From Promethearchaeota archaeon (lineage in GTDB: Archaea; Asgardarchaeota; Lokiarchaeia; Sigyniarchaeales; SOKP01): a DNA stretch of 64,000 bases. A model generated the notes under the pieces. It made no database searches. It worked only from the letters and a program-made list of their open reading frames with translations, and was not told where the DNA came from. Below, piece after piece: positions 5,850 to 31,755 of the stretch. The DNA lies in the NCBI GenBank assembly GCA_048937405.1, contig JBHLNF010000008.1, forward strand, positions 64,001 to 128,000, read 5' to 3'. The number at the start of each line of letters is the position of its first letter. The first letter of the stretch is position 1. Both the position numbers and the translations under genes were made by a program.

Positions 5850-6896
5850 CTATTTTTTAGATACAAGTAAAGCTTTTGCTAATTTATTAAAACTTTCTTC
5901 CACATTTTTACCTGTTAAAGCAGATGTTTCTATATATTCTAAATTTAAATCCATTGCGGTCTTTTCCGCATTTTCCATTAAAATTTTTCTTTCATTAATC
6001 AGATCTTCTTTATTGCCTAATATAAATCCTATTATATCTTCTTTCTCTATCTTTATATTTTTAAGTATATCATTATACCAATTAGAAATGCTTTCAAATG
6101 ATTTTGTATTTGTTAAATCAAAGATTAGAATTACACCCTCTAAACCCTTATAAAAATGACGCCGCATGAGTTCAAATTTTGTCTGACCAGCAATATCCCA
6201 TAGAATTAAATTCACAAAATCATCATCTATTTTTATAATCTTTTCTGAAATTGAAACGCCAAGTGTAGGAATGTAGGTACGCATGAAAGCATGATCGGTA
6301 AATCTTAGAATTGTACTTGTCTTTCCTACACCAGGATCTCCACATACTACTATTTTAAAATGATATCCATATGCTCTTACTTTTGTTTTATCTTCTTCAG
6401 GAAATGCTTTAGCTTCAGAACTTAGCTTCTCTTTATTAGATAAATCATCTAGGATTTCTACTACTTTTTTTTTCAATTTACCAATTTCCGTAAAAATATC
6501 GTCTGATTTCGCATGTTTATTTTCTAATTCTATTATCTTTTGAGCACTTTCATCAAATGCAGATTTAAGATAATCGAGATATTTATAGAAGATTAGATCA
6601 TCTGATTCTTTAAAGAGTAATGTAAGTGATGTCAAAGCAACTCCCCCTCGTTTTGTTTCATCTGGTCGTTCAATATATTTAGTTATTCCTTTCAAATTTA
6701 ACATAGGGAAAGGGATAATCACTAAACTTTGAGGAACAGCACCACGGTCAGTTGAGAGCATGGTAACTGATTTAATTCCTACTGACATACGAATATCATC
6801 AGATAAATCAATTGGATCCCATAAGAATGGTTTTGGGCCAATATCCTCGTCTAATACTGTGTATACGATTGCATTAATAATTTCTTTTGACATCAT
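5850..6896 (-). CDS. Longin/uDENN-like domain fused to a Rab-like GTPase
   Basis: C-terminal GDPGVGKTS/WDIAGQ/NKED/ETSA; N-terminal domain with LDEDIGPKP and DETKRG. Confidence 0.85.
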   Translation of the reverse strand: MMSKEIINAIVYTVLDEDIGPKPFLWDPIDLSDDIRMSVGIKSVTMLSTDRGAVPQSLVIIPFPMLNLKGITKYIERPDETKRGGVALTSLTLLFKESDDLIFYKYLDYLKSAFDESAQKIIELENKHAKSDDIFTEIGKLKKKVVEILDDLSNKEKLSSEAKAFPEEDKTKVRAYGYHFKIVVCGDPGVGKTSTILRFTDHAFMRTYIPTLGVSISEKIIKIDDDFVNLILWDIAGQTKFELMRRHFYKGLEGVILIFDLTNTKSFESISNWYNDILKNIKIEKEDIIGFILGNKEDLINERKILMENAEKTAMDLNLEYIETSALTGKNVEESFNKLAKALLVSKK

Positions 6897-7333
6897 TAAG
6901 CTCAGAAAATAAAATAAAAAACAAATCTATGTTTAGTGTATTCTCTCTTGATAGATTAAAAAACTTAAAATTAATAAAAATTTGTAAAAACAAAATAATT
7001 CATTACCATGATTTGAATATCGTGAAACTTACCTTTCACGTTAAATTCTATATATCAGCATAATATTTTACTTTGATATCTTTAAATATTATAAACGTTT
7101 GCTAAACATTCTTACTTTTTATGAAGAAAGTCTTACTTTTTTTTTTTATTTATTGATAAAAACGCTTCTATCTCATCAATTAACAAATTTTATAGACGTT
7201 GATTTCAGAAGGCTTAATAACCTCTTCAAAAATTAGAGGATTAGTTGTAAACAATTAAAATTGAATATAAAAAAAAAATTTAATAATAAATCTAATTAAA
7301 AGTAATCAATTATAAATTGATTATTTCTACAAT

Positions 7334-8377
7334 TTAACTATATGATTTGTATAAATGATTTGCGATTGTTGAAAACGCATAATTAACATTTTCTCCCAAG
7401 AGTGCTGAAGTCTCAACAAATTTCAGACTTAATTGATCTGCTAATTGAGTCGCCATTTCGGAAGTTACTTTCCTCTGTTCCGTTAAATCTCTTTTATTAC
7501 CAATAATAAATCCTTTTAAATCAACGGCTCTATCTTTTAGCTGTTCCATTACATCAGAATACCACTTAGGTATATTAGTGAAGGATTCAATTCGGGTTAA
7601 ATCAAAAACGAAAAATACTGCATCAGAACCTTTGTAAAAATGCTGTCTCATAGTTTGAAATTTTTGCTGACCGCCAATATCCCATAATGTCAACTGTATG
7701 ATAGAATCATCGATTTTAAAAACTTTGTCTGAAACCATAACACCAAGCGTGGGTACGTAATTTCTCCGGAATGCATTATTTGTATATCTTAATATTAATG
7801 ATGTCTTTCCAACACTAGGATCACCAACAATTATTATTTTAAATTGATAATCTATTAAATTTCGATCTTTAATTTTTAGTGCTGGAAATTCTTCTTTATC
7901 TTGCTGTGAAATCTCTTGTAGTTTTAATTCTTCTAAAAGACTCGATATATTAAATTCTAAATTCTCTAATATTTTTATGAAATCCTCCCTAGAACTCTCA
8001 GATTTTTCTAAATTTATAATATTAGGGACATTATTATTAAAAGGAACAGACAGCTCTTTAATATATTTGTAAAAAATTACATCGTCTACTTCCTGAAATA
8101 GTAATATTATTGCCGATTGACCAATTTCTCCACGTCTAGAAGGATCATGCCATTTTATAAATTTGACTAATCCTTTTAAATTCAATGAAGGAAAGGGTAG
8201 TATTACTAACGACTCGGGAATTTGCCCTTCCTCACCTGTTAAAATAGTTAAAGTTTTGATACTTATATGAATGAGGTTAATTTGAGAAAATTTAGCACCA
8301 CACCAAGCTACGGGATTTGGTCCCAATTCATCATTCATCTCTACATAGATTATGCCTGATATTAATTGTTGCGTCAT
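7334..8377 (-). CDS. Longin/uDENN-like domain fused to a Rab-like GTPase (paralogue of 5850..6896)
   Basis: GDPSVGKTS/WDIGGQ/NKRD/ETSA; N-terminal MNDELGPNP and DPSRRG; colinear with the neighbouring gene. Confidence 0.85.
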   Translation of the reverse strand: MTQQLISGIIYVEMNDELGPNPVAWCGAKFSQINLIHISIKTLTILTGEEGQIPESLVILPFPSLNLKGLVKFIKWHDPSRRGEIGQSAIILLFQEVDDVIFYKYIKELSVPFNNNVPNIINLEKSESSREDFIKILENLEFNISSLLEELKLQEISQQDKEEFPALKIKDRNLIDYQFKIIIVGDPSVGKTSLILRYTNNAFRRNYVPTLGVMVSDKVFKIDDSIIQLTLWDIGGQQKFQTMRQHFYKGSDAVFFVFDLTRIESFTNIPKWYSDVMEQLKDRAVDLKGFIIGNKRDLTEQRKVTSEMATQLADQLSLKFVETSALLGENVNYAFSTIANHLYKSYS

Positions 8378-8750
8378 AATTTTTATATATTGAAATTGAA
8401 AATGTGATTATTAAAAAATGGTCTGTGAATGATTCACTTCTAACTTATAATATAAATATTCCATTTTAATGATATCCATTTGAGAAAAATTTTATACAAT
8501 TTTACTTTGATTTAAAAAATTATGAATTCAGTAAAATCTTATTTCATTAAATTTTATCTTTAATTTTATCATTCCTTTATTTATTGTTAAAATTTATATT
8601 CAATAATTCTTCTAAAGATTTTAAATCTCATTTTATTTAATAAAATTTTTAATTTTGACTAATACATTATTATCGAGAAAGAGTTTTCAATTTCAAGTTG
8701 AAATTTATAAATTGTTTATCAAAATTTAAAATATATTCCCATAAATGAAA

Positions 8751-9026
8751 TTAATCTTTAACATTTTCTAAGATAGAGATGATTCTATAAACGGTAGTTC
8801 TTGCGTGAAATGGAATATTCGCATCTTGGGCAAGATCATCAACCATATACATAACATTACTAGCTCGAACACCAGGAGTGTCTTCTTCATTATTTAATTC
8901 ATTAATACTTCTTTGTGCAACCCTTTTAATATTTCGGGGTACACTACGGTCATTTATCATACCATTCAAAAGATATTCAACATTTTCAAAGGCTTTTTTT
9001 TCTTCTTCAGTTATTGCCCTTGGCAT
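8751..9026 (-). CDS. UPF0147 family protein
   Basis: DRSVPRNIKR...GVRAS...DANIPFHART pattern of this archaeal family. Confidence 0.85.
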   Translation of the reverse strand: MPRAITEEEKKAFENVEYLLNGMINDRSVPRNIKRVAQRSINELNNEEDTPGVRASNVMYMVDDLAQDANIPFHARTTVYRIISILENVKD

Positions 9027-9120
9027 TAAAGGATCACCAAAAAGAGTATATTCGATGGATAAATTGTTTAAAATGGAGAATTTTTTTTAAAATATAATTT
9101 TTTTGATTTTAAGAGAATAC

Positions 9121-12033
9121 TTAATATATACCAAATTCACGTATTTCTCGTTTAAGTTGGGGAATTTTTTCCTTGAAACCTTCTAATTTATTTTGATAAT
9201 TATTGAATAGAGTATCAAATTCTACAGCTTCTCCAATATCGATAGCTCGTACAAAATTATATGAAATTTGATGAATATCTTCAAATATTTGATCGAATTG
9301 TTCTGTGATTTCCAAGAGTCTTTTATTTTCAGTTTCACCTTGCTTTCTTACCATATTTCGAAGTTTACCACGTGGGATTCGTATTTTATCTATTAATTTG
9401 TCACATTCATTCAAAAATTCATATGCTTGCGTTTTATTTTTATCTATTAATTTAGCTTCAATTATTTCAGTTCGCCAAGTGTTTATTCTCCCTCTGGCAA
9501 ATGTATCGAAGTTCAATGAAAGTGAGTCTATTCCTTCTCTTACGAGAAATCGAAGAAAATCTGGATCATCACTAGGAGCTTGACCACAGATACCAACTTT
9601 TTTATTATATTGATGAGCTGTTTTTATTAAATGACTAACTGACCTCCTAATCGCTTCACTATTGGTATTATAATTATAAGTATTCATCAAGGGAATCATT
9701 TTTTCATTATCCCTTCCAACGCCATAGGTTAATTGAGTGAGATCATTTGAACCGATTGAGAAACCATCAAAATATTGACAAAAAATATCAGCACATAGTA
9801 TATTAGAAGGTATTTCTGCCATGACAAATACTTTTAATTCATTCTGACCACGAATTAATCCTTCACTTTCCATAATATCCATAATTTTTTTAGCTTCTTC
9901 AGGACTTCTGCAGAAGGGTAACATCGGAATTATATTTGTTAGACCCCAATCACGAGCTCTTTTAATAGCTCGTAATTCTAACATAAATGCATTTTGAAAT
10001 TCATCATGTACATATCTAGAACACCCTCTAAATCCTAGCATTGGATTATTTTCTTCTCCTTCGTAAATCCAACCACCTACGAGATTTGCATATTCATTCG
10101 TCTTAAAATCTGAAAGCCTTACCACACATTCTGCCATACTCTCATCTTCCAATTTTTTCCAAACACCAGCAGCAATGGTAGCAATTCCTTCTGCTAATTT
10201 ATGAACATAAAACTCTTCTTTATCATCGTATCCAATTGTTAATTCCCTAATTTTATCCAATGTCTGTTTTAATCTCAAAATTTCTTGGCTAAAAGGATCT
10301 TTATGATAAAGATCGCTTTTCTTTATATTTTCTATCCTTTTTCTTTGCTCTACTAGAATATCATACCTCATTATTAATGCTTCAAAATCTATTAATGCAT
10401 TTGGGTGAATTTGAATTTCATCATTTATAATAAATTCTAATCTTGCTAAGCCTGTACCATCAGGATACTTTCCAGAAGAGAGCGCTCCTTTGGGGATACC
10501 TAGATTAACCAATACTTTTGTTTTTGTATTTGGCAGTTTTGAGAATTCAACAGTATCCGAATCATATTCTACATCTTTTAACCAAATCCTCGATTCACCC
10601 TCGCTACAATCAATAGTAACATAATCTATCCCATTTCGTTGTTTCTCCTTAATAATTTGTGTGATATTGTCTGCACCAACGATAGAGGCTATATTTAATT
10701 CTCTTGAAACAATTGCAGCATGACAAGTAGGACCCCCTTTCTCAGTAATAACCCCACCAAGATTCTGCATATAAGATGTCCAATCTGGGTTTGTTTCCTC
10801 TGTAACAAGAATATCCCCTTGTTGTAATAAATAAGCATCGTTTATTGATTCTATTACTTTGACTTTCCCATATCCAATTCTTCGCCCAATAGCAATACCA
10901 GAATTTTCTACTAATAACTTTTGGTTAATTAAATCTTCAGGATCTTCAAGTAAATAATAAATTTCTTCTACATCACCTTTAATACTATGAACAGTTTCAG
11001 GTCGAGCTTGTACAATATATACTTTATTATCATTTCCAACGGCCCATTCAATATCCATTCTTTTTTTATAATGATCCCTAATTTTTTGAGCATATTTAGC
11101 TAAAGTCATAACTTCTTCTTCATTTAAGCAATACATCATTTGCTTTTCTTGAGGTACTGGTATTACTTCAGTTCCAATTTTACCGGATCCTTTAGAAAAT
11201 ACCATCATTTTCTCTTTTCTAACCAATTCTCTTCGAATAATTCTAAGATTTTGAGGACTATGCTTAAAAACAATAAATTCATCACCTTTTTCAACGCCTT
11301 GCACAATTAATTCACCTAAACCCCAAGTTCCTCTAATAACAACTACATTGGGATTACCACTATCAGGATCCTCTGTAAACATAACACCAGAAGCTTTTAC
11401 TCCTCCTAATCCCCCAGCCATTTGTTGAACTCCAACGCTCAATTTAACTGAAAAATGATCAAATCCCGCTCGTTCACGATACATTGTTGCCCTCGTGGTA
11501 AAAACTGATGCCATGTCCTTTAAAATGTATTCTAAAATTTCCTTTTCTCCAGTAATATTTAAATGGGTATCTTGTTGACCCGCGAATGAGGCATCAGGTA
11601 GATCTTCTGCTGTTGCTGAACTTCTCACAGCAAAGGTTGATTCACCACCAATTTTTTTTATTAAAGTATGATATGCATCAATAATTTCATCTGCTAGAGA
11701 GTCTGGTATTTTTGATTGTTCAATTACATATCGAATATTTGCACAAATTTTATCAACTTTTTCAACTGCTTTAATATCTTCTGATTTTAATTCATTAGAA
11801 ATCTTCTTAATATCTCTTTCAATTAATTCCCTTAAAGAAACTTCTTGTTCTTTAATTGTATAAAAATTAGTGTCTAAGACATAATCATAAGCTTTTGAAG
11901 TTGTAGCAAATCCCAGTGGGACAGAAATCCCAAAACTTAGCAGTTCTCCTAAAGAAGAATTTTTACCTCCTACTAGAGGAACATCATTTGCTCTAACATC
12001 TTCAAAAAATCTTATATAGTTATAATCAGACAT
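9121..12033 (-). CDS. ppsA: Phosphoenolpyruvate synthase (pyruvate, water dikinase)
   Basis: VGGKNSSLGE, AVRSSATAEDLPDASFAGQQDT, phospho-His motif TCHAAIVSRE, NPMLGFRG, FSIGSNDLTQ. Confidence 0.95.
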   Translation of the reverse strand: MSDYNYIRFFEDVRANDVPLVGGKNSSLGELLSFGISVPLGFATTSKAYDYVLDTNFYTIKEQEVSLRELIERDIKKISNELKSEDIKAVEKVDKICANIRYVIEQSKIPDSLADEIIDAYHTLIKKIGGESTFAVRSSATAEDLPDASFAGQQDTHLNITGEKEILEYILKDMASVFTTRATMYRERAGFDHFSVKLSVGVQQMAGGLGGVKASGVMFTEDPDSGNPNVVVIRGTWGLGELIVQGVEKGDEFIVFKHSPQNLRIIRRELVRKEKMMVFSKGSGKIGTEVIPVPQEKQMMYCLNEEEVMTLAKYAQKIRDHYKKRMDIEWAVGNDNKVYIVQARPETVHSIKGDVEEIYYLLEDPEDLINQKLLVENSGIAIGRRIGYGKVKVIESINDAYLLQQGDILVTEETNPDWTSYMQNLGGVITEKGGPTCHAAIVSRELNIASIVGADNITQIIKEKQRNGIDYVTIDCSEGESRIWLKDVEYDSDTVEFSKLPNTKTKVLVNLGIPKGALSSGKYPDGTGLARLEFIINDEIQIHPNALIDFEALIMRYDILVEQRKRIENIKKSDLYHKDPFSQEILRLKQTLDKIRELTIGYDDKEEFYVHKLAEGIATIAAGVWKKLEDESMAECVVRLSDFKTNEYANLVGGWIYEGEENNPMLGFRGCSRYVHDEFQNAFMLELRAIKRARDWGLTNIIPMLPFCRSPEEAKKIMDIMESEGLIRGQNELKVFVMAEIPSNILCADIFCQYFDGFSIGSNDLTQLTYGVGRDNEKMIPLMNTYNYNTNSEAIRRSVSHLIKTAHQYNKKVGICGQAPSDDPDFLRFLVREGIDSLSLNFDTFARGRINTWRTEIIEAKLIDKNKTQAYEFLNECDKLIDKIRIPRGKLRNMVRKQGETENKRLLEITEQFDQIFEDIHQISYNFVRAIDIGEAVEFDTLFNNYQNKLEGFKEKIPQLKREIREFGIY

Positions 12034-12144
12034 ATTAATGTATAGTCTCTTTGAATTGAAATGATGAAATTATCTTAAAATTATAATAATTCTCCTTCTG
12101 ATTATTAATTAAACTATCATAAAAAAAGTAACGCCAAAAATAGA

Positions 12145-12663
12145 TTATTTTAATTCGCTTTCAAATACGTTAAAATCAGAAATGTTATATAAGCAAAAGG
12201 CAACTTTTTCTATTTGAGTATCACCTTGTAAATATTCTTTAACTGTGTTTATCATAATTTTTGAACATCGCTCTATTGGAAAGCCGAATATACCGGTAGA
12301 TATCGCGGGAAATGCGATAGTTTTTAGCTTATGTTCATCCATTAATTTTAAACTATTTAAAGTGGCGTTTTTTAATTTCTCATCCTCGTTTCCCTCTCCC
12401 ATTCTTGGACCAACTGCATGGATTACATGTTTAGCTTTTAAATTGCCCCCATTGGTAATTACAGCACCACCTACAAAAGTCCCGCCAATTTTATTACATT
12501 CTTCTTGAATATTAGGTCCACCTTTTTTCCTGATTGCCCCAGCAACTCCTCCTCCTAATATAAGTTGGGCATTAGCAGCATTAACAATAGCATCTTTATC
12601 TAATTCAGTAATATCTCCTTGTACCAAACAAATTATAGATTCTTTTACTTTTATTTCTTTCAT
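12145..12663 (-). CDS. Macro domain protein (MacroD-type ADP-ribose hydrolase)
   Basis: GDIT, AIVNAAN, GGGVAGAI, HAVGP and PAISTGIFGFP motifs. Confidence 0.93.
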   Translation of the reverse strand: MKEIKVKESIICLVQGDITELDKDAIVNAANAQLILGGGVAGAIRKKGGPNIQEECNKIGGTFVGGAVITNGGNLKAKHVIHAVGPRMGEGNEDEKLKNATLNSLKLMDEHKLKTIAFPAISTGIFGFPIERCSKIMINTVKEYLQGDTQIEKVAFCLYNISDFNVFESELK

Positions 12664-12927
12664 TGTAAAAATTAATTATTTATTATTATTAAATTATTGA
12701 ACCTTTAAGAAATACAATTAAAATATCTTTTTTTTTGAATATGTTTTATTATTTCTTTTTTATTAAGGTTAAATTTATATTTTTAGAACTCACATTTCTT
12801 TATCTCTTTAATAAATCGATAATTTTTATTTTCTCTTAATAATTTAAATCATATATATAGTAATTAATTGGTTAATTAAGGAGATATTTAAGAAATAAGA
12901 AAAATTCTTAGTTTTCTAACAATAAAG

Positions 12928-13050
12928 ATGAAAAAAGAAGATATTTGTTATCTTTCTGCTTGCGAGATAGCAGAAAAAATAAAAACACAAGAGCTAACCT
13001 CAGAAGAAATTACCGAAACTATAATTGAGAGAATTGAAAAAATCAATTAA
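12928..13050 (+). pseudogene. N-terminal remnant of an amidase-signature family gene
   Basis: MKKEDICYLSACEIAEKIKTQELTSEEITETIIERIEKIN* resembles the first helices of amidase/GatA proteins and then stops. Confidence 0.6.
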
Positions 13051-13175
13051 GCTCTTATAAAAAAGAAAATCGATGAATTAAATTATCTTTAATCCTAAAA
13101 GAATATACTTGAACTATAATAGAGAAATTTTTTTAAATAGTTATTTATAAAAAAATTAATTAAAAAGAATCATTT

Positions 13176-13880
13176 TCATGATTCATCTTTACTCTTTTTG
13201 AATATCTCATCTAGTTTAGCCCTATCCTCATCAGACATTTTACTCATTGCTTCCATATTTTGCCGCATTAAATCCATCATTACTTTTTGCGAGACAAGTT
13301 GGTTTAATACAGGTAATGCTATTCTCATACGAGTTAATTCATAATGCATGATTTTTGCTGTTTCCCGCATCTCTTTCAAGTCATCTTTAGTCATTCCTTC
13401 TTCACCTATACCTGGACAGTCAGCATCTACTACTATAAAGTTTTTTCCATCAAATTCTAATGGATATGTTCGACAACTCAATGGACGATTTTCGTAGACT
13501 AAACATTTTTTATCATCCTTGTTATATAAAGGGCATTTTACGTCCAATAATTCTTCGATAGGCACAATACCAAATGGATCCTTAAGCTTAGATTCTTCTT
13601 CTCCCTCTTTTGGAGGTGGTGCTAAAGGTTTTAATATTAAATCAATCCCACCATCAGGTTTTTGATATATATCTAAATAGGGCATAAAATTAGCTACAAC
13701 TCCATTTCTCGCCCACATTTCTAGATCCCAAAAAGTAATAGGGATAGGCCCTCTAGCATCACAGCAGTTATCACAACGAGTACATTTAAATGAAAATTTT
13801 GCTTTTGGTTTATCATCAACAGCTTCTTTTTCATTTTCTTTTATTTCGGAATTTTGAGATTCTTTTTCTTCTTCAGACAT
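13176..13880 (-). CDS. YkgJ-family cysteine-cluster (CxxCxxCC) protein
   Basis: CTRCDNCC, CPLY, CLVYENRPLSCRTYP, CPGIG. Confidence 0.88.
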   Translation of the reverse strand: MSEEEKESQNSEIKENEKEAVDDKPKAKFSFKCTRCDNCCDARGPIPITFWDLEMWARNGVVANFMPYLDIYQKPDGGIDLILKPLAPPPKEGEEESKLKDPFGIVPIEELLDVKCPLYNKDDKKCLVYENRPLSCRTYPLEFDGKNFIVVDADCPGIGEEGMTKDDLKEMRETAKIMHYELTRMRIALPVLNQLVSQKVMMDLMRQNMEAMSKMSDEDRAKLDEIFKKSKDES

Positions 13881-16249: not shown

Positions 16250-16307
16250 AATATAAAAATTTTATATATTGCTTTTTTTGAGAATAATAATAAAATATAA
16301 TTTAAAA

Positions 16308-18362: not shown

Positions 18363-19265
18363 TTGCTGAATTTTGATAATGAACAAAAAGTAGTTCAAAT
18401 TGGAAATATTAAAATAGGTGGTCAACCAGGAGAAAATCCAATTGTTATGATTGGTACTGTTTTTTATGCAAAACATAAGGCATTATTAGATGAAAAAACA
18501 GGTGAAATTGATAAGAAATTAGTTGAAGAAGAATTAAATAATTATATAGAAATCATCGAAGAAACACAATTACAAGGTGTTATAGATGTAATTGGGGCAT
18601 ACCCAGAAGCATTGATAAAAGAATGTGAATTTATCGCAGATAATGTAGAATATCCCTTTTTAGTTGATGGACTAAATGATTCCTCAAGGATCCCTGCAAT
18701 GGAAGGATTACAGGAAATAGGATTACTAGATCGAGCTATTTTAAATAGTATTGATGAAAATACCACTGATGAAAATTTAGAGAAATTAAAACAAATTCGA
18801 GTAAAAAATGCAGTATTATTGACATTTGGAAATAAATATATATTTCCTCAGCAAAAGTTAAAATTTTTAAGAGAGATCTTAATACCCAAAACCGAGAAAG
18901 CAAATATCAAAAATATTATAGTTGATACCGCAGTTTTAGATTTACCATCAATTTCTATTAATTTTGAAACAGCAGGACTAATTAAAAAAGAATTAGGTTT
19001 ACCAACTGGATTTGCTCCTTCCAATGCAATTTATGGATGGAGTTATATTAAAAAATTTGGTGAAAATGCACGATGCGGCGCAATTGCTTCTATAATGACC
19101 TATTGTGCCACTGCTCCGAGTGATTTTATTTTATTTGGACCAATAAAATTTGCAAAGTGTACTATACCCGCTGTTGCTTTAATTTCCGGTGTAAACTCAT
19201 ATTATCAAAAAAGAGTAAAAAGACAGAAAATATCTGAACGTACTCCCTTAAAAACAATTTTTTAA
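18363..19265 (+). CDS. mtrH: MtrH-family pterin methyltransferase, stand-alone
   Basis: IGGQPGENPIVMIGTVFY, RAILNSI, VDTAVLD, LPTGFAPSNA, DFILFGPI; no other mtr genes nearby. Confidence 0.85.
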   Translation: MLNFDNEQKVVQIGNIKIGGQPGENPIVMIGTVFYAKHKALLDEKTGEIDKKLVEEELNNYIEIIEETQLQGVIDVIGAYPEALIKECEFIADNVEYPFLVDGLNDSSRIPAMEGLQEIGLLDRAILNSIDENTTDENLEKLKQIRVKNAVLLTFGNKYIFPQQKLKFLREILIPKTEKANIKNIIVDTAVLDLPSISINFETAGLIKKELGLPTGFAPSNAIYGWSYIKKFGENARCGAIASIMTYCATAPSDFILFGPIKFAKCTIPAVALISGVNSYYQKRVKRQKISERTPLKTIF

Positions 19266-20767
19266 CCAATATATCTTAAAAGTAAATCTTTTGTCTGCTT
19301 TAAAAAATCTGTTAATTGTTTGTTTATAATTTTTTTCTTCTTTTCATTATCAACTAGAAATAAAATAAACATATTATTTTCTTCAATTTGTATTTTTTTA
19401 AAAAGAATAACTGAATTTGCTACTTTAAATATTGCTTCTTCTTTCTGTAGAGCTTTAAATTTAGAAAAAATTTTAAATAACATTGTAAATTGTGGTGCTG
19501 TTACTTCAAATACATTCATAACTTCAGTTTTCGGTATTTTAATTAAATCCATTGCATCTGTGCTATAGAAATCCGCTAAAACTAATCCATCAGCACTTAA
19601 TAATAAAGTTAAATAAGAATTTGTTGCTAACGAAAAATTTTTTAAATTATGGTTAATCAAATCTCTATTCGGACTTAGTTTTGATATACCAGAGGAAAAT
19701 GCTCTTAAAACTGTAAAAATTTGGAAGATACTAGTAATATATATTTCTATTGTGTCATTGTTGGAGATTTCAGATAGTTTTTTTTTTATATACTCAATAT
19801 TTTCTTTAATTTCTCTTGAATTAATTATATCAGAATCTCCCTTGGATAAAACATATATAATTGGAGTATTTTGATTAAATTTATTTAATACGTTTTTTAA
19901 ATCTTGAAGATATTCAATACTTTCTTCAAATCTTTTGTTATTTTTAATATCGATAAAATAAAAAAGTAAATCTGCTTCATACAAATAAATTTCTGCTTTA
20001 TTTATATATTTCTTTCTAAATGTATATTGCCCTCCTAAATCCCATAAAAAAATTGTTGCTCCCAAAGCTTCTATAGATTTGATACTTGCTCCTGCTGTGG
20101 GTTTTAAGCCAATTAATTTACTATATTTCCGATCCACTGATAATAAAAAACTTGTTTTTCCACTATCATCCAACCCAGCAAATAAAATTTTCATTTTTCG
20201 ATGAGTAGTAATTGGAGTTGAAGGATTTCGCTCAATTTCTATTAAATTTTGTAAAAGTTTATGAAAAAAAGGTAAAGCCTCTTCACGTGGTGGATAATAC
20301 TTTACCATTTTTTTATCAAAAGTTTGGAAAAATTCATATACTATAGGTTTAATTCTATTCATATTATTGTATAAAAAGCTCCGACTATTTTCTTCTACTA
20401 ATATAGAAAATGCTGTAGCTACAGGGTGGATTGAATTTAATCTAATAAAATGGAAGTAAGTAAGAGATGTAGTCTTAAAATCAGGATAAGGTAAAATTGC
20501 GAAATATTGTAATTTTCTAAGATCCTTTTCTTGAGAAATTATTTTATCACTAATAAATAAACTTAAATTTTTTATTGAAATTTGAGTTATATCTCGCATA
20601 CTCAGAACAAGTTCCGTTTCCATCTTTGAGGATTTATCAATTTCTTTTAATTCTTTTTCAGTATAATGCTCTGGAAAGCAATATATAGGTGATGGACCGA
20701 GTTCTCCATATACACTTAAAACAAAACCTTTTAGAATTGAAGATTTGAATAATTCTTCCATTATCAT
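19262..20767 (-). CDS. Longin-like domain + Rag/Arf-like GTPase + roadblock domain protein
   Basis: N-terminal VYGELGPSP; GLDDSGKTS, WDLGGQ, variant G4 SKGD, TSIF; C-terminal LLLSADGLVLAD roadblock pattern. Confidence 0.82.
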   Translation of the reverse strand: MIMEELFKSSILKGFVLSVYGELGPSPIYCFPEHYTEKELKEIDKSSKMETELVLSMRDITQISIKNLSLFISDKIISQEKDLRKLQYFAILPYPDFKTTSLTYFHFIRLNSIHPVATAFSILVEENSRSFLYNNMNRIKPIVYEFFQTFDKKMVKYYPPREEALPFFHKLLQNLIEIERNPSTPITTHRKMKILFAGLDDSGKTSFLLSVDRKYSKLIGLKPTAGASIKSIEALGATIFLWDLGGQYTFRKKYINKAEIYLYEADLLFYFIDIKNNKRFEESIEYLQDLKNVLNKFNQNTPIIYVLSKGDSDIINSREIKENIEYIKKKLSEISNNDTIEIYITSIFQIFTVLRAFSSGISKLSPNRDLINHNLKNFSLATNSYLTLLLSADGLVLADFYSTDAMDLIKIPKTEVMNVFEVTAPQFTMLFKIFSKFKALQKEEAIFKVANSVILFKKIQIEENNMFILFLVDNEKKKKIINKQLTDFLKQTKDLLLRYIG

Positions 20768-24150: not shown

Positions 24151-24693
24151 ATGCGTAGGAAAATGATTTTTGATTTCAAAAAGGAATATAATGGTGTAAT
24201 ATCTGTTATTGGAGCAAGTGAAATTGATAAAGATACAAAAAAAAAAGCTGTTGAAATTGGTAAATTACTTGCTCAAAATAGATATATTGTTGCTTGTGGT
24301 GGATTATCCGGTGTAATGAAAGCTGTTTGCAAGGGAGCAAAAATTGAAAATGGATTAACAATTGGAATTATTCCCTACATTGAAAAATCAGCAGCAAATA
24401 AATACGTTGACATTGTTATTCCTTGCCCATTTTCTCAAGCAAGGAATATTGTTGTAGTTCTTAGCGGTGATGCATGTTTAGCAATTAGTGGTAAAGCAGG
24501 GACTTTATCAGAAATCTGTTTTGCATGGATTTATCAAAAGCCAATAGTAGCATTATCTGGTGTAAAGGGATGGTCATCAAAAATAGCCAATCAAAAATTA
24601 GATGATCGAAGATTTGATATAATCTATGGTGTTGAAACTCCTCAAGAAGCAATTTCTAAATTAATTGAATTATTAAATACTCCAAAAATTTAG
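24151..24693 (+). CDS. LOG-family (Rossmann-fold nucleotide-binding) protein
   Basis: CGGLSGVMKAVCKGA, GLTIGIIP, ARNIVVV, GTLSEI. Confidence 0.88.
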   Translation: MRRKMIFDFKKEYNGVISVIGASEIDKDTKKKAVEIGKLLAQNRYIVACGGLSGVMKAVCKGAKIENGLTIGIIPYIEKSAANKYVDIVIPCPFSQARNIVVVLSGDACLAISGKAGTLSEICFAWIYQKPIVALSGVKGWSSKIANQKLDDRRFDIIYGVETPQEAISKLIELLNTPKI

Positions 24694-24851
24694 ATTATAA
24701 GCTCAAAAAAAAATATTCATTGAGAAAATCAATTATATCTGAATATCAATAAGAAATGCAAAAAATAAAATAGTATGAAATAATTTTGTAAATTACAAAA
24801 AGAATATATTTATATTTAAATTACTTTTATAAAAATAGGTGAAATTAGACT

Positions 24852-25823
24852 TTGGAAAAAAATCTTAAACAATCAATATTATACTTAAAGAAAGAGGAAC
24901 CAGAGTTACCTATATCAGTAAATAAGGTTTTATTCACTGGTCTTGATGATGCGGGTAAAACAAGTATTATTTTATCACTTCAAAGAGAGTTTTCTAAAAT
25001 AGCAATATTATCCCCCACACGAGGAGCACAAAGGAGAATATTTAATTTTTTGGGTAAGGAGATATCAGAATGGGATTTAGGAGGCCAATTAGCATATCGT
25101 ATTGCCTATTTAAAAAATCCAGGAAAATATTTTGAAGGTACTGAAATTGCTATATATGTAATTGATATACAAAATAAAGAAAGATTTTCTGAGGCTATTA
25201 GTTATTTTAAAGATGTCATAGATCAATTTCAAAAATTAGAAATAGAACCTCCAATATATGTATTCCTCCACAAATTCGACCCTGCTCTAAGAAGAAATGC
25301 CCAAAATGAGATGGAAACATTAGTTCTTGATTTAAAAGATAAACTAAAAGCAACTGAATATAAAAAAATATTTTACTATGAAACGTCCATTTATAATTTT
25401 GGCTCAATAATAGCAGCTATGTCAGAAATTCTTTTAGATTTGTATCCAAAATCTGAATTAATTGAAAAAACAATTCAAGAATTTGCTAAGAAAGTTGAAT
25501 CTGATGGAGTGGTTATTATCGATGATAATTCCCTCATAATTGGATCATATTATAAAGATGATGAAATTAGGCATCTCCTAAACGCCAGCTGTCCATTTTT
25601 TTTAACTCTTCATGATTCATTCCAATACACGAATCCTGCAGAAGATAAGTTTGGTGATCGGATGTTAATTCAGCGTTTTGGCAGAAACTTCATATTTAAA
25701 CAATTCGAATTAAAGAAAGACATGCCACCATATTATTTACTACTTGTGAAGGAAGAGCCTGTTTTTAATAAGGAAGATCTTGAATCTTTTATTAATTTAT
25801 TAGGGGAAATATTGTACAAATAA
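24852..25823 (+). CDS. Rag-like GTPase with a C-terminal roadblock domain
   Basis: GLDDAGKTS, WDLGGQ, Rag-type G4 HKFD and G5 TSIY, followed by DGVVIIDDNSLIIGS. Confidence 0.85.
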   Translation: MEKNLKQSILYLKKEEPELPISVNKVLFTGLDDAGKTSIILSLQREFSKIAILSPTRGAQRRIFNFLGKEISEWDLGGQLAYRIAYLKNPGKYFEGTEIAIYVIDIQNKERFSEAISYFKDVIDQFQKLEIEPPIYVFLHKFDPALRRNAQNEMETLVLDLKDKLKATEYKKIFYYETSIYNFGSIIAAMSEILLDLYPKSELIEKTIQEFAKKVESDGVVIIDDNSLIIGSYYKDDEIRHLLNASCPFFLTLHDSFQYTNPAEDKFGDRMLIQRFGRNFIFKQFELKKDMPPYYLLLVKEEPVFNKEDLESFINLLGEILYK

Positions 25824-26114
25824 TTCTATTATTTTATAGTAATTGATTAGATAAAATAAAAAGAAGATTCATTAGTTTATAGGTTTTTAAAAAAAAGCAG
25901 ATCAATTCAATTTTAAGGATTTTACATAGGTTCGCTTACAATCTAAAAATATTAATCTTAGCCTTGCTTTTTTAGTAGTAGAGAATTATTACTAATATTA
26001 ATAAAATTTTATTTTTATTTGTTATTTATAAGTTAAAAAATTAAATGTATTGAATTACAAAAGTCTAAATAAACTGTGAAAAAGCTTTAAAAACCAAAAA
26101 GTGGGAAAAATCTA

Positions 26115-27200
26115 TTGATTATATGCCAGAATTGCGGGACTACTAATAATGAGCTTAATACTCGTATTTGCAGGAATTGTGGTTCATTATTACCAATACC
26201 TTCTAAATCTAGTAGGGAAAGAGGAAAAAAAATAATTCTAGAAAAGAAAAAAAAGAAAAAGGAATCAAAAAAAGTTATAAAAGAAACTATAAATTCAGCA
26301 GAAAAATCAAAGGAAGATTTAATACTAGAAGAAATACCAAAAGAAATTGATAGTAATGAAAATCTAGGTGAAATGCATGAGATTCCTACAACATCGAAAG
26401 AAAAATTTATAGTACCAACTCATAAAGAAAAAGAACCTTCAGTTTTACAAGAAATTCCCGCACAGCCTTTTAAAGGTTCAATAATCAATTCCCAAGGTGG
26501 TATAACTAAACCTAAACCTATACCTAAACCTTTACCTATCCCCCCTTCTCGTTCTGAGGATGCAATCACAGATGCTTTCACAGAACTTAAAAGTTCTATT
26601 TTAGAAGAGCAAAATAAAGAACAAGAAATTTCTTTGTCTCCAATTCCTTCAGAGAATACTAAAATTGAAGAATCAATATTAAAACAAAAACAATTAGAAA
26701 AAGATATGACTGACGTTTTAAGTTTTCTTTCCAAAAAAATATCAGTTAAGAAATTAGATATTCCTAAAGCTAAGAAAGAAGAAAAAGAGGAATTAAAGGA
26801 GGAAATTCCACCATCTAGTATGAATGAAATTTTGAATAGATTATTAACTTTAGATTTAAACATTGAAGCATCGGCTATTATAAAATCGGATGGAACAATA
26901 TTAGCCTCAGCAACATCAAATAGAATCTCTGATTCTTTATTTGCAACAATAGGAGTGAACTTATCAATGATAGGAGCAGATATTACAGAAGGATTAAGTG
27001 CAGGTACTTTAAAAGCAATATCCTTAAAAGCAACTGAGGGTGTGTTAGATCTTGCACCCATTGATAAGTCAAATCCAAGTGTTAAGGATATGATTTTAAT
27101 TTTGTTTTCTCATTCTAAAGTAAAAAGTGGAATAATTTCATTTGCCATAAGCATTGTTAAAAAACAGATAAAAGAATATTTAGGTTTAAAAAAAGCATAA
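26115..27200 (+). CDS. Zinc ribbon + disordered linker + roadblock/LC7 domain protein
   Basis: CQNC...CRNC at the N terminus, long K/E/P-rich linker, C-terminal IEASAIIKSDGTILAS. Confidence 0.8.
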   Translation: MIICQNCGTTNNELNTRICRNCGSLLPIPSKSSRERGKKIILEKKKKKKESKKVIKETINSAEKSKEDLILEEIPKEIDSNENLGEMHEIPTTSKEKFIVPTHKEKEPSVLQEIPAQPFKGSIINSQGGITKPKPIPKPLPIPPSRSEDAITDAFTELKSSILEEQNKEQEISLSPIPSENTKIEESILKQKQLEKDMTDVLSFLSKKISVKKLDIPKAKKEEKEELKEEIPPSSMNEILNRLLTLDLNIEASAIIKSDGTILASATSNRISDSLFATIGVNLSMIGADITEGLSAGTLKAISLKATEGVLDLAPIDKSNPSVKDMILILFSHSKVKSGIISFAISIVKKQIKEYLGLKKA

Positions 27201-27235
27201 AATAAAAGTCAACCACAACTTAACTAAAATATAAT

Positions 27236-28030
27236 TCAAATCAGCCTTTTTTGTATATTAATTTTATTAATTTTAATTGTATAAAAATAAGATATATTAT
27301 TTTGTAATTCTTGCAAAAATGAATTCATTTCATAAATTGAAACGAGAGGAATTTGGTTTTCATTAATTCTGAAACTATTATTTTCTAGAGTTAACATTAA
27401 TGGAATTAAAATAAATGGCAATTGTCTTCTCAAATTGATTCTATTCCCTAGCAATGCTTGAACTAACTTTGAGAAGATTTCAGGATTTTTTTTTAGTGCT
27501 ATGACTCGGCGTAGTTGTAAATTAGCAGCTTTGTTTATCAAACTAAATGAATCCTTACGTTTCCATTGTTTAGCATCGATTAATAAAACAAATTTTGAAT
27601 AGATACCAATAACATCAATTTCATAACGCTTTTGGGAAGTTTTCAATTTAAAATTTGATTTATCAGAAAATCTAAAATTCTTTTTAGTAATATAACTATT
27701 TCTTGAAAGAATTTGTTCCACTAAGATTTCAAATCCATTATAATTTAATATTTCAGTAATTTGTTTTATATCAAATTCTAAAATTTTGATGCTCTCAATA
27801 ATAAATAAGATTTTATTGACAACGATGTATTCTTGATAATTTCCTTTCTGAATAGATATGAAATCAAAATTCCCTATAAACGCTGTTAACTCATAATAAT
27901 TGAAATGATTAAAGAAAGGAATTTCTGATTGTGTACACCAGATATCAATAACATTTATATCAGTATTTTGCAAAATATGAAATATTTCTATATAGAATTG
28001 CTTTAATGATAAAAGAGAAAAACATTTCAT
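27236..28030 (-). CDS. PD-(D/E)xK nuclease (Mrr-like restriction endonuclease family)
   Basis: FEILVEQIL, YEIDVIG, LLIDAKQW; the true start may lie downstream. Confidence 0.7.
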   Translation of the reverse strand: MKCFSLLSLKQFYIEIFHILQNTDINVIDIWCTQSEIPFFNHFNYYELTAFIGNFDFISIQKGNYQEYIVVNKILFIIESIKILEFDIKQITEILNYNGFEILVEQILSRNSYITKKNFRFSDKSNFKLKTSQKRYEIDVIGIYSKFVLLIDAKQWKRKDSFSLINKAANLQLRRVIALKKNPEIFSKLVQALLGNRINLRRQLPFILIPLMLTLENNSFRINENQIPLVSIYEMNSFLQELQNNISYFYTIKINKINIQKRLI

Positions 28031-28322
28031 TATTTTAATTATAATATTATCATAAAATAAAAGAAAGAGGGTGATGTAATTCTGAAAAAACTTTTAAATT
28101 AGATATTTATCTAAAATAATTTTGAAAATGTACCATACTTTACTTTTAGAAACATCAATATTTTAAAAGATTCTTTTTTTTAGTTATGTGTTTAATATCT
28201 TTTTTTTAGGATAATTAGAGTTTCAATTTAATGACAGAATAATAATGTTATTTATTATCTCGGGGAATTTATTAATAAAAGTATTATTAATTGTATTAAA
28301 AATATTTTAACTGACTATAAAT

Positions 28323-30131
28323 ATGGATTTATTACCCAAAGTATTTAGAACTGAAGGAAATATAGCTGAATTTGATCCAAACAAAATTTTTGAAAGTATT
28401 ATAAAAGAGACTAACATAAATGATGCAGATGCAAAAAATATAACAGAATCAGTAGTAAGGAGAATAATTAGTTCGGGCATTAAATTTCTTTCCGGACCGC
28501 ATATAAGAGAAATAGTTTGTTCAATCCTTTCAGAACAACATTTTGAAGAAGAACGTAAATTGTACACTAGGATAGGAATGCCTTTAATGGATTATGAAGC
28601 ATTACTTGAGAAAAAATCAGGAATAAGACTAAATAAGTGGATTAATCCAGAAAAAATTAATCATTGGTCTGCAAACCAAATAGCTGAAGAGTATACTCAC
28701 TTAAGAATTCTTAGTAATGAAGAATCTAAAGCTCATTTGTATGGTGATATTCATATTAATGGACTAAGTTATTTTGATCTTAGACCATTCACTCAAATAT
28801 GGGATCCTCGATTAATTTTATATGGTGGATTTCCTCCCATTGACAATCTTAATGGCTTTATTAAACAAGAACCACCAAAAAAACTCAGTTCAATCCTTTC
28901 TCAACTATTCAAATGGCTTGAAACTGTTATGAATGAATTTTATGGAAATCAAGATCTCAATCTAATTTCTCTTTTTTTAGCTCCATATGTAACTAGCATA
29001 TCTGAAGAAAAAATAAAGAAAGAAATTCGAAAATTTATCTATGGGATAAATTTATTGCCAATTATTAAAGGACGTGAAATTTTATCAACAAGAATTACTT
29101 CCAGTGCTTCGATCCCTGAAAGCTTTTCAAAACTTATTGCTCTAAATCCCAATGAAAGCATAAATCGTAATTATTCAGATTACAATAGCGATTGTTTAAA
29201 TATTCTTAAGGCATTTATTTTTGTTTTTAAGGAAATTAGTAAAAATCGTATTAATTTTCCATCTCTTAACTTTCAAATCTTACTAGATGATAACTCTATT
29301 GATAATCTAGAACGAAATTATAGTGAATTCTGGGATGATATTAAAACGTATAAAGGTAGCACTTCAATCGATTTTTGTTTTAATTCGTCTATTAATAGAG
29401 ATATTAAAAAATTAGCTCAGAATGATATATATAACGTTGGTATACTTCAGAATATAAGTCTAAATCTACCTAGATATGCCTATATTAGTCAAGATGAAAC
29501 AAAATTTTTTGAATTATTACGTGAGAAAGTAATGCTAAGTTCTGAGGTTTTATTAAAAAAATTTCATATGATTGAAAAAAGATTAAAATTAAAACATTTA
29601 CCTTGTTGTTGTGGCATTATTGATAAAAAGCCATTGTTTAGGTTGGAAAATCAAGACCTTTCATTTAGTTTAGTTGGGTTGAACGAGTCTATCAAAATCT
29701 TAACAAATTATGAACTTCATGAACATATAGATGCAATTAACTTTGGTTTAAGGATATTAAATGAATTGAATAATCTATGTATAGAACTAACTGAAGCAGT
29801 TGGAAAAAATTATGCAATAAGTGAGAATAGTTCATTAAAAGCTATAAATAGATTTACTAGATTAGATCGAAAACATTTTTCAAGTTTATTAAAATATTTA
29901 ACGGAAGATTTAACTTATCAATATTCAAATTCAATTCACTTTCGGAAAGACATTGAGGTTGAATTATTCAAACGTGTGGAGGTTCAAGGCAATTTCCATC
30001 GTTTCATTAAAAATGGAGCAATTGAAAATATTTCATTGTATGATCTTGAATTAAATGCTTTATCTATTCATGAATTCATCAATATAATTAGTAAAAAATC
30101 AAGAATTTCAAGCATAAATTTTTCTTCTTAA
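28323..30131 (+). CDS. ATP-cone + degenerate class III ribonucleotide reductase (NrdD-like) core; probable pseudo-enzyme
   Basis: ATP cone (FDPNKI...SGPHIREIVC), AHLYGDIHI, SLNLPRYA, GLNE, YSNS; no catalytic Cys loop, Zn site or RxxGY glycyl loop. Confidence 0.78.
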   Translation: MDLLPKVFRTEGNIAEFDPNKIFESIIKETNINDADAKNITESVVRRIISSGIKFLSGPHIREIVCSILSEQHFEEERKLYTRIGMPLMDYEALLEKKSGIRLNKWINPEKINHWSANQIAEEYTHLRILSNEESKAHLYGDIHINGLSYFDLRPFTQIWDPRLILYGGFPPIDNLNGFIKQEPPKKLSSILSQLFKWLETVMNEFYGNQDLNLISLFLAPYVTSISEEKIKKEIRKFIYGINLLPIIKGREILSTRITSSASIPESFSKLIALNPNESINRNYSDYNSDCLNILKAFIFVFKEISKNRINFPSLNFQILLDDNSIDNLERNYSEFWDDIKTYKGSTSIDFCFNSSINRDIKKLAQNDIYNVGILQNISLNLPRYAYISQDETKFFELLREKVMLSSEVLLKKFHMIEKRLKLKHLPCCCGIIDKKPLFRLENQDLSFSLVGLNESIKILTNYELHEHIDAINFGLRILNELNNLCIELTEAVGKNYAISENSSLKAINRFTRLDRKHFSSLLKYLTEDLTYQYSNSIHFRKDIEVELFKRVEVQGNFHRFIKNGAIENISLYDLELNALSIHEFINIISKKSRISSINFSS

Positions 30132-30291
30132 AAGGATCGGATATTTCTGATTTTTGGTAAAAAAAGTATTTAATAAGAATAATTATTTTGATTATATTGA
30201 AGTATTATTATGATATTAATATATATTAAAATAAATGATAATTTATACTTTGGATAGTTTAAGATCTTTCTGATAAATTAATGGGGATTGT

Positions 30292-31755
30292 TTGACAAAA
30301 TCAAAAGATAAACAAAATCAAGAAAAATTGCCTGAGGAAAAAACCACAGGGCCTAAATCAGATATTATTAAGGTTATTGTTTTAAGTATTTTTGATGAGA
30401 ATGGTCCTACTCCAAGAATATATTGGCCTCAGGATTTAGAAGATCAAGCAGGACTATTGATTGCTATGAAAACCATTAGTTTATTAATGGGTGATGCTAC
30501 ATATCAAGATGGGACGGATGTTGAAGGAATCAATTATTTTGGAATATTACCTTTTCCAGATTTAAAATTAAATGGTTTAACTTATTTTTTCTTAATTCCC
30601 GATGATACTGCTCGCGGAAAAGCCTTAGCGGCAACAATAACTATTTTAATTAATGAAGAAAATAAAGTGTTTTTCTATGAAAACATGAAATATCTTAGAA
30701 TTATAATGGATAAAGCTGCTACTCAAATTCAGAACAATCAGCAATTTAGTGAAAGAGAAATCATTATGGAAAAATTCCGAGAGGAAATCTTTGAATTTGC
30801 CAGTGAAGTAAAAGATCCTTATTCTACTAAAAGACACATTAAAGTTCTTCTTGCAGGATTAGATAAAGCGGGTAAGACAAGTTTTATGTATGGGATTAGG
30901 AGGAAATATTCCGAAATTATTAAATCTATGCCAACAAAAGGCGTTGAAAGATCTGAAGAAAATATCTTTGAAGAACAGAATACTGCTATTACGATTTGGG
31001 ATTTAGGTGGACAAAAACAATATCGGGAAAGATATCTTGAACAAAGCAAAATGTATTTGTATAATATTGATCTTATGTTCTTCTTTATCGATATTCAAGA
31101 TGTGGAAAGAATAGATGAAGCATTAAACTTATTCAAAAAGATTTTAAAAACAATAATAGAATTAGATGAATTCCCTCCTATTGTTGTTTGCTTAAATAAA
31201 TTTGACCCAGACCTTAAGGGTTCAAAAGAAATTTTTAAAAATTTAGAAATAATTGCTGATGCAATTAAAGAAAATTCAGACAAATTCTTTATTAAAATTT
31301 TTCAGACTAGTATTTTTGATCACTGGAGTCTAATTTCAGCCTATTCTTTTGGATTGTCTCAATTAAGTCCCAATCGAGAATTATTCAGAAATCAATTGAA
31401 AAAATTTGCAAAAAAAACAAATTCAGATGCTATATTACTATTAAATGAAAATGGGATTATTTTATCAAATTATTCTAAATCGGAAATTTCTGGAAAAGTA
31501 TTCGAAGTGAGTGCCCCTCACTTTCAATCACTTTACAAGAATTTTAAAGAATTTAAATTGTTAGAACAAGATTTTATCGTTTCATCTGGGATTTCTGATA
31601 AGTCTAAAAAAGTAATCTTTAAAAGAATAACCGTTGAAAAATATAATTTGTATTTACTTTTATTCTTAGAAAAATCACTTGAAATTGATAAAATAGAAAA
31701 AAATTTACCTGATTTTTCAAAAAACTTGATTGATTTAATCCATACTTATATTTAG
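30292..31755 (+). CDS. FLCN-like longin domain + Rag/Arf-like GTPase + roadblock domain protein
   Basis: IFDENGPTP, FFLIPDDTARG; GLDKAGKTS, WDLGGQ, NKFD, TSIFD; DAILLLNENGIILSN. Paralogue of 19262..20767. Confidence 0.85.
   Translation: MTKSKDKQNQEKLPEEKTTGPKSDIIKVIVLSIFDENGPTPRIYWPQDLEDQAGLLIAMKTISLLMGDATYQDGTDVEGINYFGILPFPDLKLNGLTYFFLIPDDTARGKALAATITILINEENKVFFYENMKYLRIIMDKAATQIQNNQQFSEREIIMEKFREEIFEFASEVKDPYSTKRHIKVLLAGLDKAGKTSFMYGIRRKYSEIIKSMPTKGVERSEENIFEEQNTAITIWDLGGQKQYRERYLEQSKMYLYNIDLMFFFIDIQDVERIDEALNLFKKILKTIIELDEFPPIVVCLNKFDPDLKGSKEIFKNLEIIADAIKENSDKFFIKIFQTSIFDHWSLISAYSFGLSQLSPNRELFRNQLKKFAKKTNSDAILLLNENGIILSNYSKSEISGKVFEVSAPHFQSLYKNFKEFKLLEQDFIVSSGISDKSKKVIFKRITVEKYNLYLLLFLEKSLEIDKIEKNLPDFSKNLIDLIHTYI

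Follow-up and report, generated by a model that had tools for sequence, protein, structure and literature searches.

Longin-GTPase fusion proteins of a lokiarchaeal genome carry a predicted folliculin/SMCR8-type longin domain with a conserved loop arginine

Three eukaryotic GTPase-activating protein (GAP) complexes, FLCN-FNIP2, C9orf72-SMCR8 (CSW) and NPRL2-NPRL3 (GATOR1), are built on longin domains, have Rag, Arf and Rab GTPases as clients, and combine one partner that bears an arginine finger with one that does not. GAP-type longins have a Gly-Pro (GP) motif at strand 2, in the loop or at its start (PMC12290439), and SMCR8 Arg147 has been placed on the βL4-βL5 loop and equated with FLCN Arg164 (Tang et al., 10.1101/2020.04.16.045708). 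FLCN-like and NPRL2-like longins were also described in Asgard archaea (Liu et al., 10.1101/2020.10.19.343400), and a survey in Traffic (2025, PMC12290439) reports Asgard 'Folliculin/SMCR8 longin domain-containing' proteins with GP and the arginine finger (15 Asgard longins), proposes that they share ancestry with the eukaryotic GAP longins and may have GAP activity, and raises the question of whether their partners are ArfR or Rag GTPases. Here we describe four proteins, P0001 to P0004, encoded in a 64-kb stretch of DNA from an Asgard archaeon of the Lokiarchaeia (contig JBHLNF010000008.1, positions 64,001 to 128,000; GC content ~27%; hereafter the window, meaning the whole stretch analysed), in which a longin domain of this type precedes the G domain of a GTPase. 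They resemble the eukaryotic complexes in having GP at strand 2 and, in three of the four, an arginine in the β4-β5 loop. In the eukaryotic complexes, however, GAP and GTPase are separate proteins and a DENN or an NPRL-specific domain comes after the longin, whereas here the longin leads directly into the GTPase and the GAP role is a prediction.

Longin domains fused to lokiarchaeal GTPases were reported in 2016 (Klinger et al., cited in PMC4917890), and longin-GTPase and longin-GTPase-roadblock architectures are documented in Lokiarchaeia (Klinger 2016 via PMC4917890; Tran et al. 2024, PMC10933270), the earlier reports of such fusions dating from 2016, 2021 and 2024. P0001 to P0004 very probably belong to the same protein families as these published architectures. 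In the Klinger and Tran reports the domain is classed only as a longin, with no GAP-type class, arginine finger or finger/finger-less pair. The main text of the 2025 survey makes no mention of a GTPase fusion, whereas the longins described here have Rab-like and Rag-like G domains as covalent partners, with an Arf-like one in a further protein of the same genome. The derivation of the eukaryotic GAP longins from Asgard longins with GP and an arginine finger is an idea already found in PMC12290439 and in 10.1101/2020.10.19.343400. An incomplete literature search returned no paper calling GTPase-fused longins GAP-type, in two or three GTPase classes, and none treating the Rag-type fusions as a conserved finger/finger-less pair. 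What is new here is the link between the two published observations, together with the conserved pairing, inside a Rag-roadblock island, of one protein that has the finger with one that lacks it.

The original prediction, made from the sequence of the window, named four GTPase genes and proposed that they share an N-terminal domain of the folliculin/SMCR8 type that, in three of them, retains the GAP arginine. The four open reading frames (ORFs) and the motifs quoted for them are exact in the translations: the GP regions LDEDIGPKP (P0001), MNDELGPNP (P0002), YGELGPSP (P0003) and FDENGPTP (P0004), the I(I/L)P(F/Y)P motif, and the arginines R83, R82 and R108. The features of the four genes, in window coordinates, are as follows.

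5850-6896, minus strand: P0001, longin-Rab fusion, 348 amino acids (ORF list, Pfam, full-length AlphaFold2 (AF2) model)
6417-6896, minus strand: P0001 longin, residues ~1-160
6834-6839, minus strand: P0001 GP motif
6648-6650, minus strand: P0001 Arg83 codon, loop DETKRG
5853-6371, minus strand: P0001 Ras/Rab-type G domain, residues 176-348
7334-8377, minus strand: P0002, longin-Rab fusion, tandem paralogue of P0001, 347 amino acids
7898-8377, minus strand: P0002 longin
8318-8323, minus strand: P0002 GP motif
8132-8134, minus strand: P0002 Arg82 codon, loop DPSRRG
7337-7855, minus strand: P0002 Rab-type G domain
19262-20767, minus strand: P0003, Arg-less longin-Rag-C-terminal-domain protein, 501 amino acids
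20210-20767, minus strand: P0003 longin
20693-20698, minus strand: P0003 GP motif
20426-20437, minus strand: P0003 loop NSIH in place of xxRG
19688-20203, minus strand: P0003 G domain, with SKGD as G4
19265-19687, minus strand: P0003 C-terminal domain
30292-31755, plus strand: P0004, Arg-bearing longin-Rag-C-terminal-domain protein, 487 amino acids
30361-30807, plus strand: P0004 longin
30403-30408, plus strand: P0004 GP motif
30613-30615, plus strand: P0004 Arg108 codon, loop FFLIPDDTARG
30829-31341, plus strand: P0004 G domain
31342-31752, plus strand: P0004 C-terminal roadblock-like domain

In all four proteins the N-terminal region, of ~160-190 residues each, matches no Pfam family above threshold. 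Alignment of the Rab-type and Rag-type N-domain profiles with hhalign gave a probability of 99.35% (E 6e-21, 146 columns), with GP, PFP and RG in identical columns, and this rules out a merely superficial likeness between the two. As judged from these profiles, the N-terminal domain (~160 amino acids) is homologous in P0001 to P0004 and not alike by chance. The prediction that one domain is attached to two GTPase classes, Rab-like and Rag/Arf-like, was likewise borne out by this alignment and by the Pfam families of the G domains, which differ between the two pairs of proteins (PF00071 against PF04670).

An AF2 model of residues 20-178 of P0004, built on a 118-sequence alignment, was obtained with high confidence (predicted local distance difference test, pLDDT, 91.4; predicted template modelling score, pTM, 0.88), and its order of elements, β-β-α-β-β-β-α-α, is that of a longin (in model numbering, strands 7-16 and 19-26, helix 32-47, strands 63-69, 74-84 and 92-102, then helices). 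The full-length model of P0001 (pLDDT 92.1) has the identical longin topology. In an exhaustive comparison with 48,161 PDB representatives (VIA-align), the top neighbour of the P0004 longin was 8yqg, a Lokiarchaeota longin dimer (Z 18.3), followed by 6nzd_H of the lysosomal folliculin complex (13.0), Lst4 (12.7), the C9orf72-SMCR8 chains 7o2w_A (12.1) and 6lt0_B (11.0), GATOR1 8fw5_B (11.7), FLCN-FNIP2 6ulg_N (10.7) and the SEA complex 8adl_S (10.5), the subunit identity of each matched GAP-complex chain being inferred from residue ranges. DENND1A reached 10.1, and the longins of TRAPP, adaptin, SNARE and SRX proteins as well as roadblock domains scored at most 9.4. Foldseek returned the same structural families. 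In the ESM Atlas the model matched the Asgard longin-GTPase family itself (template modelling score, TM, 0.83), a Heimdallarchaeota family with Folliculin matches (0.79), and eukaryotic uDENN FLCN/SMCR8-type proteins, C9orf72 and SMCR8 (0.77 each), along with Avl9 and an Asgard NPR2-like family.

At the sequence level, Pfam PF11704 (Folliculin) matched residues 96-156 of P0004, which include the arginine loop, with 17.4-18.4 bits against a cut-off of 23.3. The same family matched 22 of the 118 relatives at E <=0.05 (best E 9e-6), one of which, P0362, was the only one to exceed the curated cut-off (24.5 bits), and no other family recurred. Since the nearest folds after 8yqg are GAP-complex chains and the Folliculin matches recur, assignment of the modelled N-domain to the GAP-type (uDENN) longin class of FLCN, SMCR8 and NPRL2 is well supported, in agreement with the fold that had been proposed.

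The closest solved relative, 8yqg, is a Roadblock-Longin protein of a Lokiarchaeota (profile E 2e-16) that shares GP and crystallised as a dimer, but it is fused to a roadblock domain rather than to a GTPase. The Rag/Gtr and Asgard Rag-like structures (8yl2, 8zla/9m28) align to the G and C-terminal part only of P0003 and P0004, and human RagA, with 313 amino acids, is too short for the extra longin that these two proteins carry at the N-terminus. Our literature search found no paper for 8yqg, 8yl2 or 8zla/9m28. These entries were released in 2025-2026; a structural group is working on such proteins, and related work may be in press.

In P0004 the GP motif (G38-P39, model residues 19-20) lies at the start of strand 2; GP is present in P0001 to P0004, invariant in both orthologous families and found in more than 90% of the 118 diverse relatives. 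In the AF2 models, the hairpin that joins strand 4 to strand 5 holds R108 of P0004 and R83 of P0001. The sequence A107-R108-G109 was observed in all 119 close Rag-type relatives of P0004, and R83 in 114 of the 115 close Rab-type relatives of P0001; conservation of the arginine among Asgard homologues had been posed as a test of the original prediction. Over the wider set of cluster representatives the arginine is present in 58 of 67 Rab-type, 11 of 25 Rag-type, 8 of 11 L-X and 7 of 10 X-L proteins. The hallmarks of a catalytic subunit, GP and an Arg-Gly in the β4-β5 loop, are found in P0001, P0002 and P0004, while P0003 has no arginine there. The arginine is retained in the three proteins for which this had been proposed, and the loop of P0003 reads NSIH; by its sequence, P0003 resembles the finger-less partner subunits. 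In one related genome, the longin domain of the P0004 orthologue (G079:C154:3397-3918) contains a TAG codon in frame, which may mean a sequencing error, a pseudogene or a recoded codon.

The G domains of P0001 and P0002 (residues ~180-343) match PF00071 with 156 and 159 bits (cut-off 21.6, E 1e-46), and those of P0003 and P0004 (~184-400) match PF04670, Gtr1_RagA, with 73 and 95 bits (cut-off 22), giving Gtr1_RagA/Arf-type assignments at E 2e-20 and 5e-27, respectively. The profile of the Rag-type G and C-terminal part was matched by the Asgard Rag-like structure 8yl2 (E 2e-56, positions 6-297) and by RagA/Gtr1 at E ~1e-21 (RagA 4e-21). These matches assign P0003 and P0004 to the Rag/Gtr family, with a Gtr1_RagA-type G domain followed by a predicted roadblock-type C-terminal domain. 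All four G domains retain the P-loop, the switch II DxxGQ and G4 (G1-G4 complete), which makes a finger supplied in trans plausible. The linkers from longin to G domain are short; a conserved DPY marks those of the Rag type and a conserved FP those of the Rab type. Pfam reported no DENN domain in any of the four proteins. The C-termini of P0001 and P0002 (KALLVSKK and NHLYKSYS) contain no cysteine, hence no prenylation motif of the eukaryotic Rab kind. In the Arg-bearing longin-Rab fusions, 43 of 58 representatives have a proline at P-loop position 3 (the Ras Gly12 equivalent, GDPxVGKT), as do 2 of 9 Arg-less Rab-type fusions, and the plain Rab-like GTPase adjoining the window's fusions has glycine there; this proline may reflect an active-site co-adaptation or merely shared ancestry.

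P0003 and P0004 belong to a pair that is maintained across genomes. The phylogeny of 118 domains placed the Arg-less Rag-type longins in one clade (SH-like approximate likelihood-ratio test, SH-aLRT, 97; 20 rows) among the Arg-bearing Rag-type longins, and the Rab-type longins formed another (SH-aLRT 99, 64 rows); the tree comes from a quick IQ-TREE run in which many deeper forks have no resolution. Of the 81 genomes surveyed in the class, 74 belong to the order of the window's archaeon. Within this order, orthologues of P0004 were found in 69 and of P0003 in 70 of the 74 genomes, with both present in 66, P0004 only in 3, P0003 only in 4 and neither in 1; in 7 genomes of other families of the class none was found. 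The two genes lie on one contig, 4-20 kb apart and on opposite strands, in 41 of the 66 genomes (counted from listed coordinates), and the gene order is kept in six loci from six genera, including a sister family at 33-48% identity. This order is MtrH, P0003, AIRS-like, SLOG, a longin-less Rag-like GTPase, a Zn-ribbon protein, orf264, NrdD-like, P0004 and transglutaminase-like. The survey and the six-locus synteny rule out that the pairing is a peculiarity of this genome, and the island is a conserved module, although the genomes counted are related and the counts do not show independent events. In the Arg-less Rag-type clade, G4 reads SKxD/TKxD and not NKxD/HKxD, and in some members the switch II Gln is replaced by T, A or K, a hint, from sequence, that the G domain of the finger-less partner may be partly degenerate.

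Three further genes lie near the fusions.

24852-25823, plus strand: third Rag-like GTPase, longin-less, 323 amino acids (Pfam Gtr1_RagA, E 3e-26)
26115-27200, plus strand: Zn-ribbon protein with a C-terminal Roadblock/LAMTOR2-like domain (Atlas cluster, score 0.98)
4621-5172, plus strand: plain Rab-like GTPase, longin-less, 183 amino acids, P-loop GDGEVGKT (Pfam Ras, E 4e-43)

The longin-less Rag-like GTPase keeps its island position between P0003 and P0004 in 6 of 6 loci and is a candidate substrate or partner of the fusions. The Zn-ribbon protein, whose residues 233-356 have structural matches to Robl_LC7 and which the Atlas labels 'putative Roadblock/LAMTOR2 domain-containing protein', is kept in 5 of 6 loci, being undetected in that of the sister family. 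The plain Rab-like GTPase adjoins the two longin-Rab fusions; Rab-type fusions were present in 25 of 25 genomes sampled in the family and often share a contig with the Rag island; two genera have them in tandem. Of the other island genes, orf264 looks like a NERD/Mrr nuclease, and the NrdD-like ORF with an ATP cone (28323-30131, plus strand), directly upstream of P0004, is the part of the island that varies: some genera have it at full length, others have only ~95 amino acids of it, and in two it was not detected.

From these observations, namely the fold class, the motif positions, their conservation, the homology across both fusion types, the co-occurrence and the conserved linkage, which the analysis establishes, we consider it probable, if only just, that P0001, P0002 and P0004 are GTPases with a built-in GAP-type longin whose hydrolysis depends on assembly; catalysis, dimerisation and docking geometry are what we infer. 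The longin domains would dimerise, as in the solved Lokiarchaeota longin 8yqg and all eukaryotic GAP-longin pairs, and the dimer would form a platform for the docking of a G domain, where the loop arginine would join the retained switch II Gln and so make the active site complete. Hydrolysis would then be that of a dimerisation-activated switch, not a constitutive one. In the Rag type the likely unit would be a heterodimer of P0004, with the finger, and P0003, which kept GP and lost the finger; one finger for two G domains would produce an asymmetric nucleotide cycle and would parallel SMCR8:C9orf72 or FLCN:FNIP on a Rag pair. GTPases activated by a built-in arginine or by dimerisation are familiar from the helical-domain arginine of G-alpha and from MglA, whose intrinsic arginine acts with MglB. 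The concept, an arginine from the same polypeptide or from a partner protomer, is the same here, but the origin of the finger is unrelated, since it would lie in a longin hairpin. We prefer an assembly-dependent GAP because the archaeal 8yqg is a dimer and because eukaryotic longin domains are inactive singly and must pair (10.1101/2020.04.16.045708). That the fusions act as GAPs, whether in cis or in trans, is a plausible prediction.

Several results weigh against this interpretation. No window protein reaches the Folliculin cut-off, P0004 being the only one with a match, and the FLCN, SMCR8 and NPRL2 chains in the PDB were not reached by HMMER with single domains, with the 118-sequence profile or with a core-only profile of Arg-bearing domains, these searches giving only 8yqg and coiled-coil noise. 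Because the profiles did not reach those chains, and because the fold searches gave matched ranges rather than residue pairs, the proposed equivalence of R108 with FLCN R164, SMCR8 R147 or NPRL2 R78 is one of position only, drawn from the structural element in the model and the Pfam hidden Markov model matches. The β4-β5 loop of 8yqg contains no arginine, and an entire fusion clade has lost the arginine and yet persists, which implies that the longin domain does more than provide a finger. The majority of longin and DENN modules are guanine nucleotide exchange factors (GEFs) or platforms.

The modelled arrangement of the domains was examined with P0004, whose longin was docked on its own G and C-terminal part with GTP and Mg. 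This gave an interface score (ipSAE) of 0.43 (runs 0.32, 0.51 and 0.43; best control 0.00), a mark that 58 of the 80 solved complexes attain, as do 2 of the 110 mismatched pairs, with only 7 of those 80 complexes and both mismatches falling between it and 0.60. The runs agreed in at least 71% of contacts, with a partner pLDDT of at least 79, and they lend weak support to docking of the longin on its own G and C-terminal part. No output showed the arginine near a nucleotide, the docking run having listed no contacts at all. The P0001 model, with a pTM of 0.66 and a less confident linker, predicts no fixed cis arrangement.

The persistence of the domain without arginine, in the large Rag-type clade and in the 8yqg dimer, would be expected if the longin were, like most longin, roadblock and DENN modules, a dimerisation or platform module or a GEF. 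Arg-Gly would then stabilise the hairpin or bind a ligand other than the nucleotide, for instance another protein or the head group of a lipid. The closeness of DENND1A, a Rab GEF, among the structural neighbours (Z 10.1) points the same way, and neither the docking nor the P0001 model showed an arginine-nucleotide contact. We nevertheless consider this explanation unlikely: GP together with the loop arginine is a signature of GAP-type longins that is absent from GEF-type longins (PMC12290439), the top neighbours are GAP-complex chains, and the arginine, in a surface loop, is invariant within the orthologous families. The covalent union of longin and GTPase by short, motif-bearing linkers and the weak docking support for the isolated parts of P0004 could also be read as a finger that works strictly in cis, that is, a self-timing GTPase with constitutively fast hydrolysis and no partner, similar to the built-in arginine of G-alpha. 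The pTM of the P0001 model indicates no confident intramolecular packing, single eukaryotic longins are inactive, and the conserved finger/finger-less pair is hard to reconcile with a purely cis mechanism, which we find very improbable.

The built-in longin could instead act on other GTPases, those encoded at 24852-25823 and 4621-5172, with the fused G domain as a regulator or anchor. Each fusion type is adjoined by a longin-less GTPase of the matching class, the Rag-like one holding its island place in all 6 genera, and the Arg-keeping relatives that lack a GTPase fusion must work in trans if they are GAPs. The fused G domains, however, keep all catalytic motifs and are not obviously degenerate anchors, and action on other GTPases seems to us quite improbable. 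It is unlikely, though worth stating, that P0004 and P0003 form an obligate heterodimer uniting in two chains the longin GAP pair (FLCN:FNIP or SMCR8:C9orf72) and the Rag heterodimer, which are separate in eukaryotes. With the conserved longin-less Rag-like GTPase and the roadblock protein that resembles LAMTOR, such a dimer would make up an archaeal forerunner of the Rag-Ragulator-folliculin module, and the stand-alone eukaryotic GAP longins would have arisen by fission of such fusions.

The extent of the family was assessed by an exhaustive profile search, which gave 251 cluster representatives at 50% identity. The architectures of the best 150 of these and of the four window proteins comprised 67 longin-Rab-type fusions, 25 longin-Rag-C-terminal-domain fusions, 40 short proteins (stand-alone or fragments) and 21 joined to other modules, such as a TrmB DNA-binding domain. 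Stand-alone close relatives were sought among shorter proteins, where the search gave only contig-end fragments of the fused family. In this genome the GAP-type longin profile found six domains only, with the four GTPase fusions all within 26 kb. On contig C10 (~134756-137650; L005:1-2895, minus strand), a protein of more than 965 amino acids (open frame ~1131) has an Arf-like GTPase (residues 154-313), then a longin of the same class with RWDENLG and DESIRGG, then PAS sensor domains, so that the order is reversed, GTPase then longin, inside a sensory protein. On contig C7 (L006:1015-1956, plus strand), a longin with YWDDVLGP is attached to a response-regulator receiver domain; its WD stands beside GP, like the combination reported in C9orf72, whose longin has W33-D34 plus GP (PMC12290439). 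The loop of the C7 longin is ERHG, not RG. The ORF at 38486-42028 (minus strand, 1180 amino acids) has no Pfam family at E <=0.001 and was not matched by the GAP-type longin profile in the genome search.

How the three longin GAP complexes of eukaryotes (folliculin, C9orf72-SMCR8 and GATOR1) and Rag nutrient signalling arose is an open question. The natural fusions described here offer a Rosetta-stone answer to the partner question of the 2025 survey, with the GAP-type longin joined to Rab-, Rag- and Arf-like G domains, and as single polypeptides they are compact proteins for a direct test of the arginine-finger mechanism. The finger/finger-less pair would date the asymmetric design of longin GAPs, 'one catalytic, one scaffold', to before eukaryotes.

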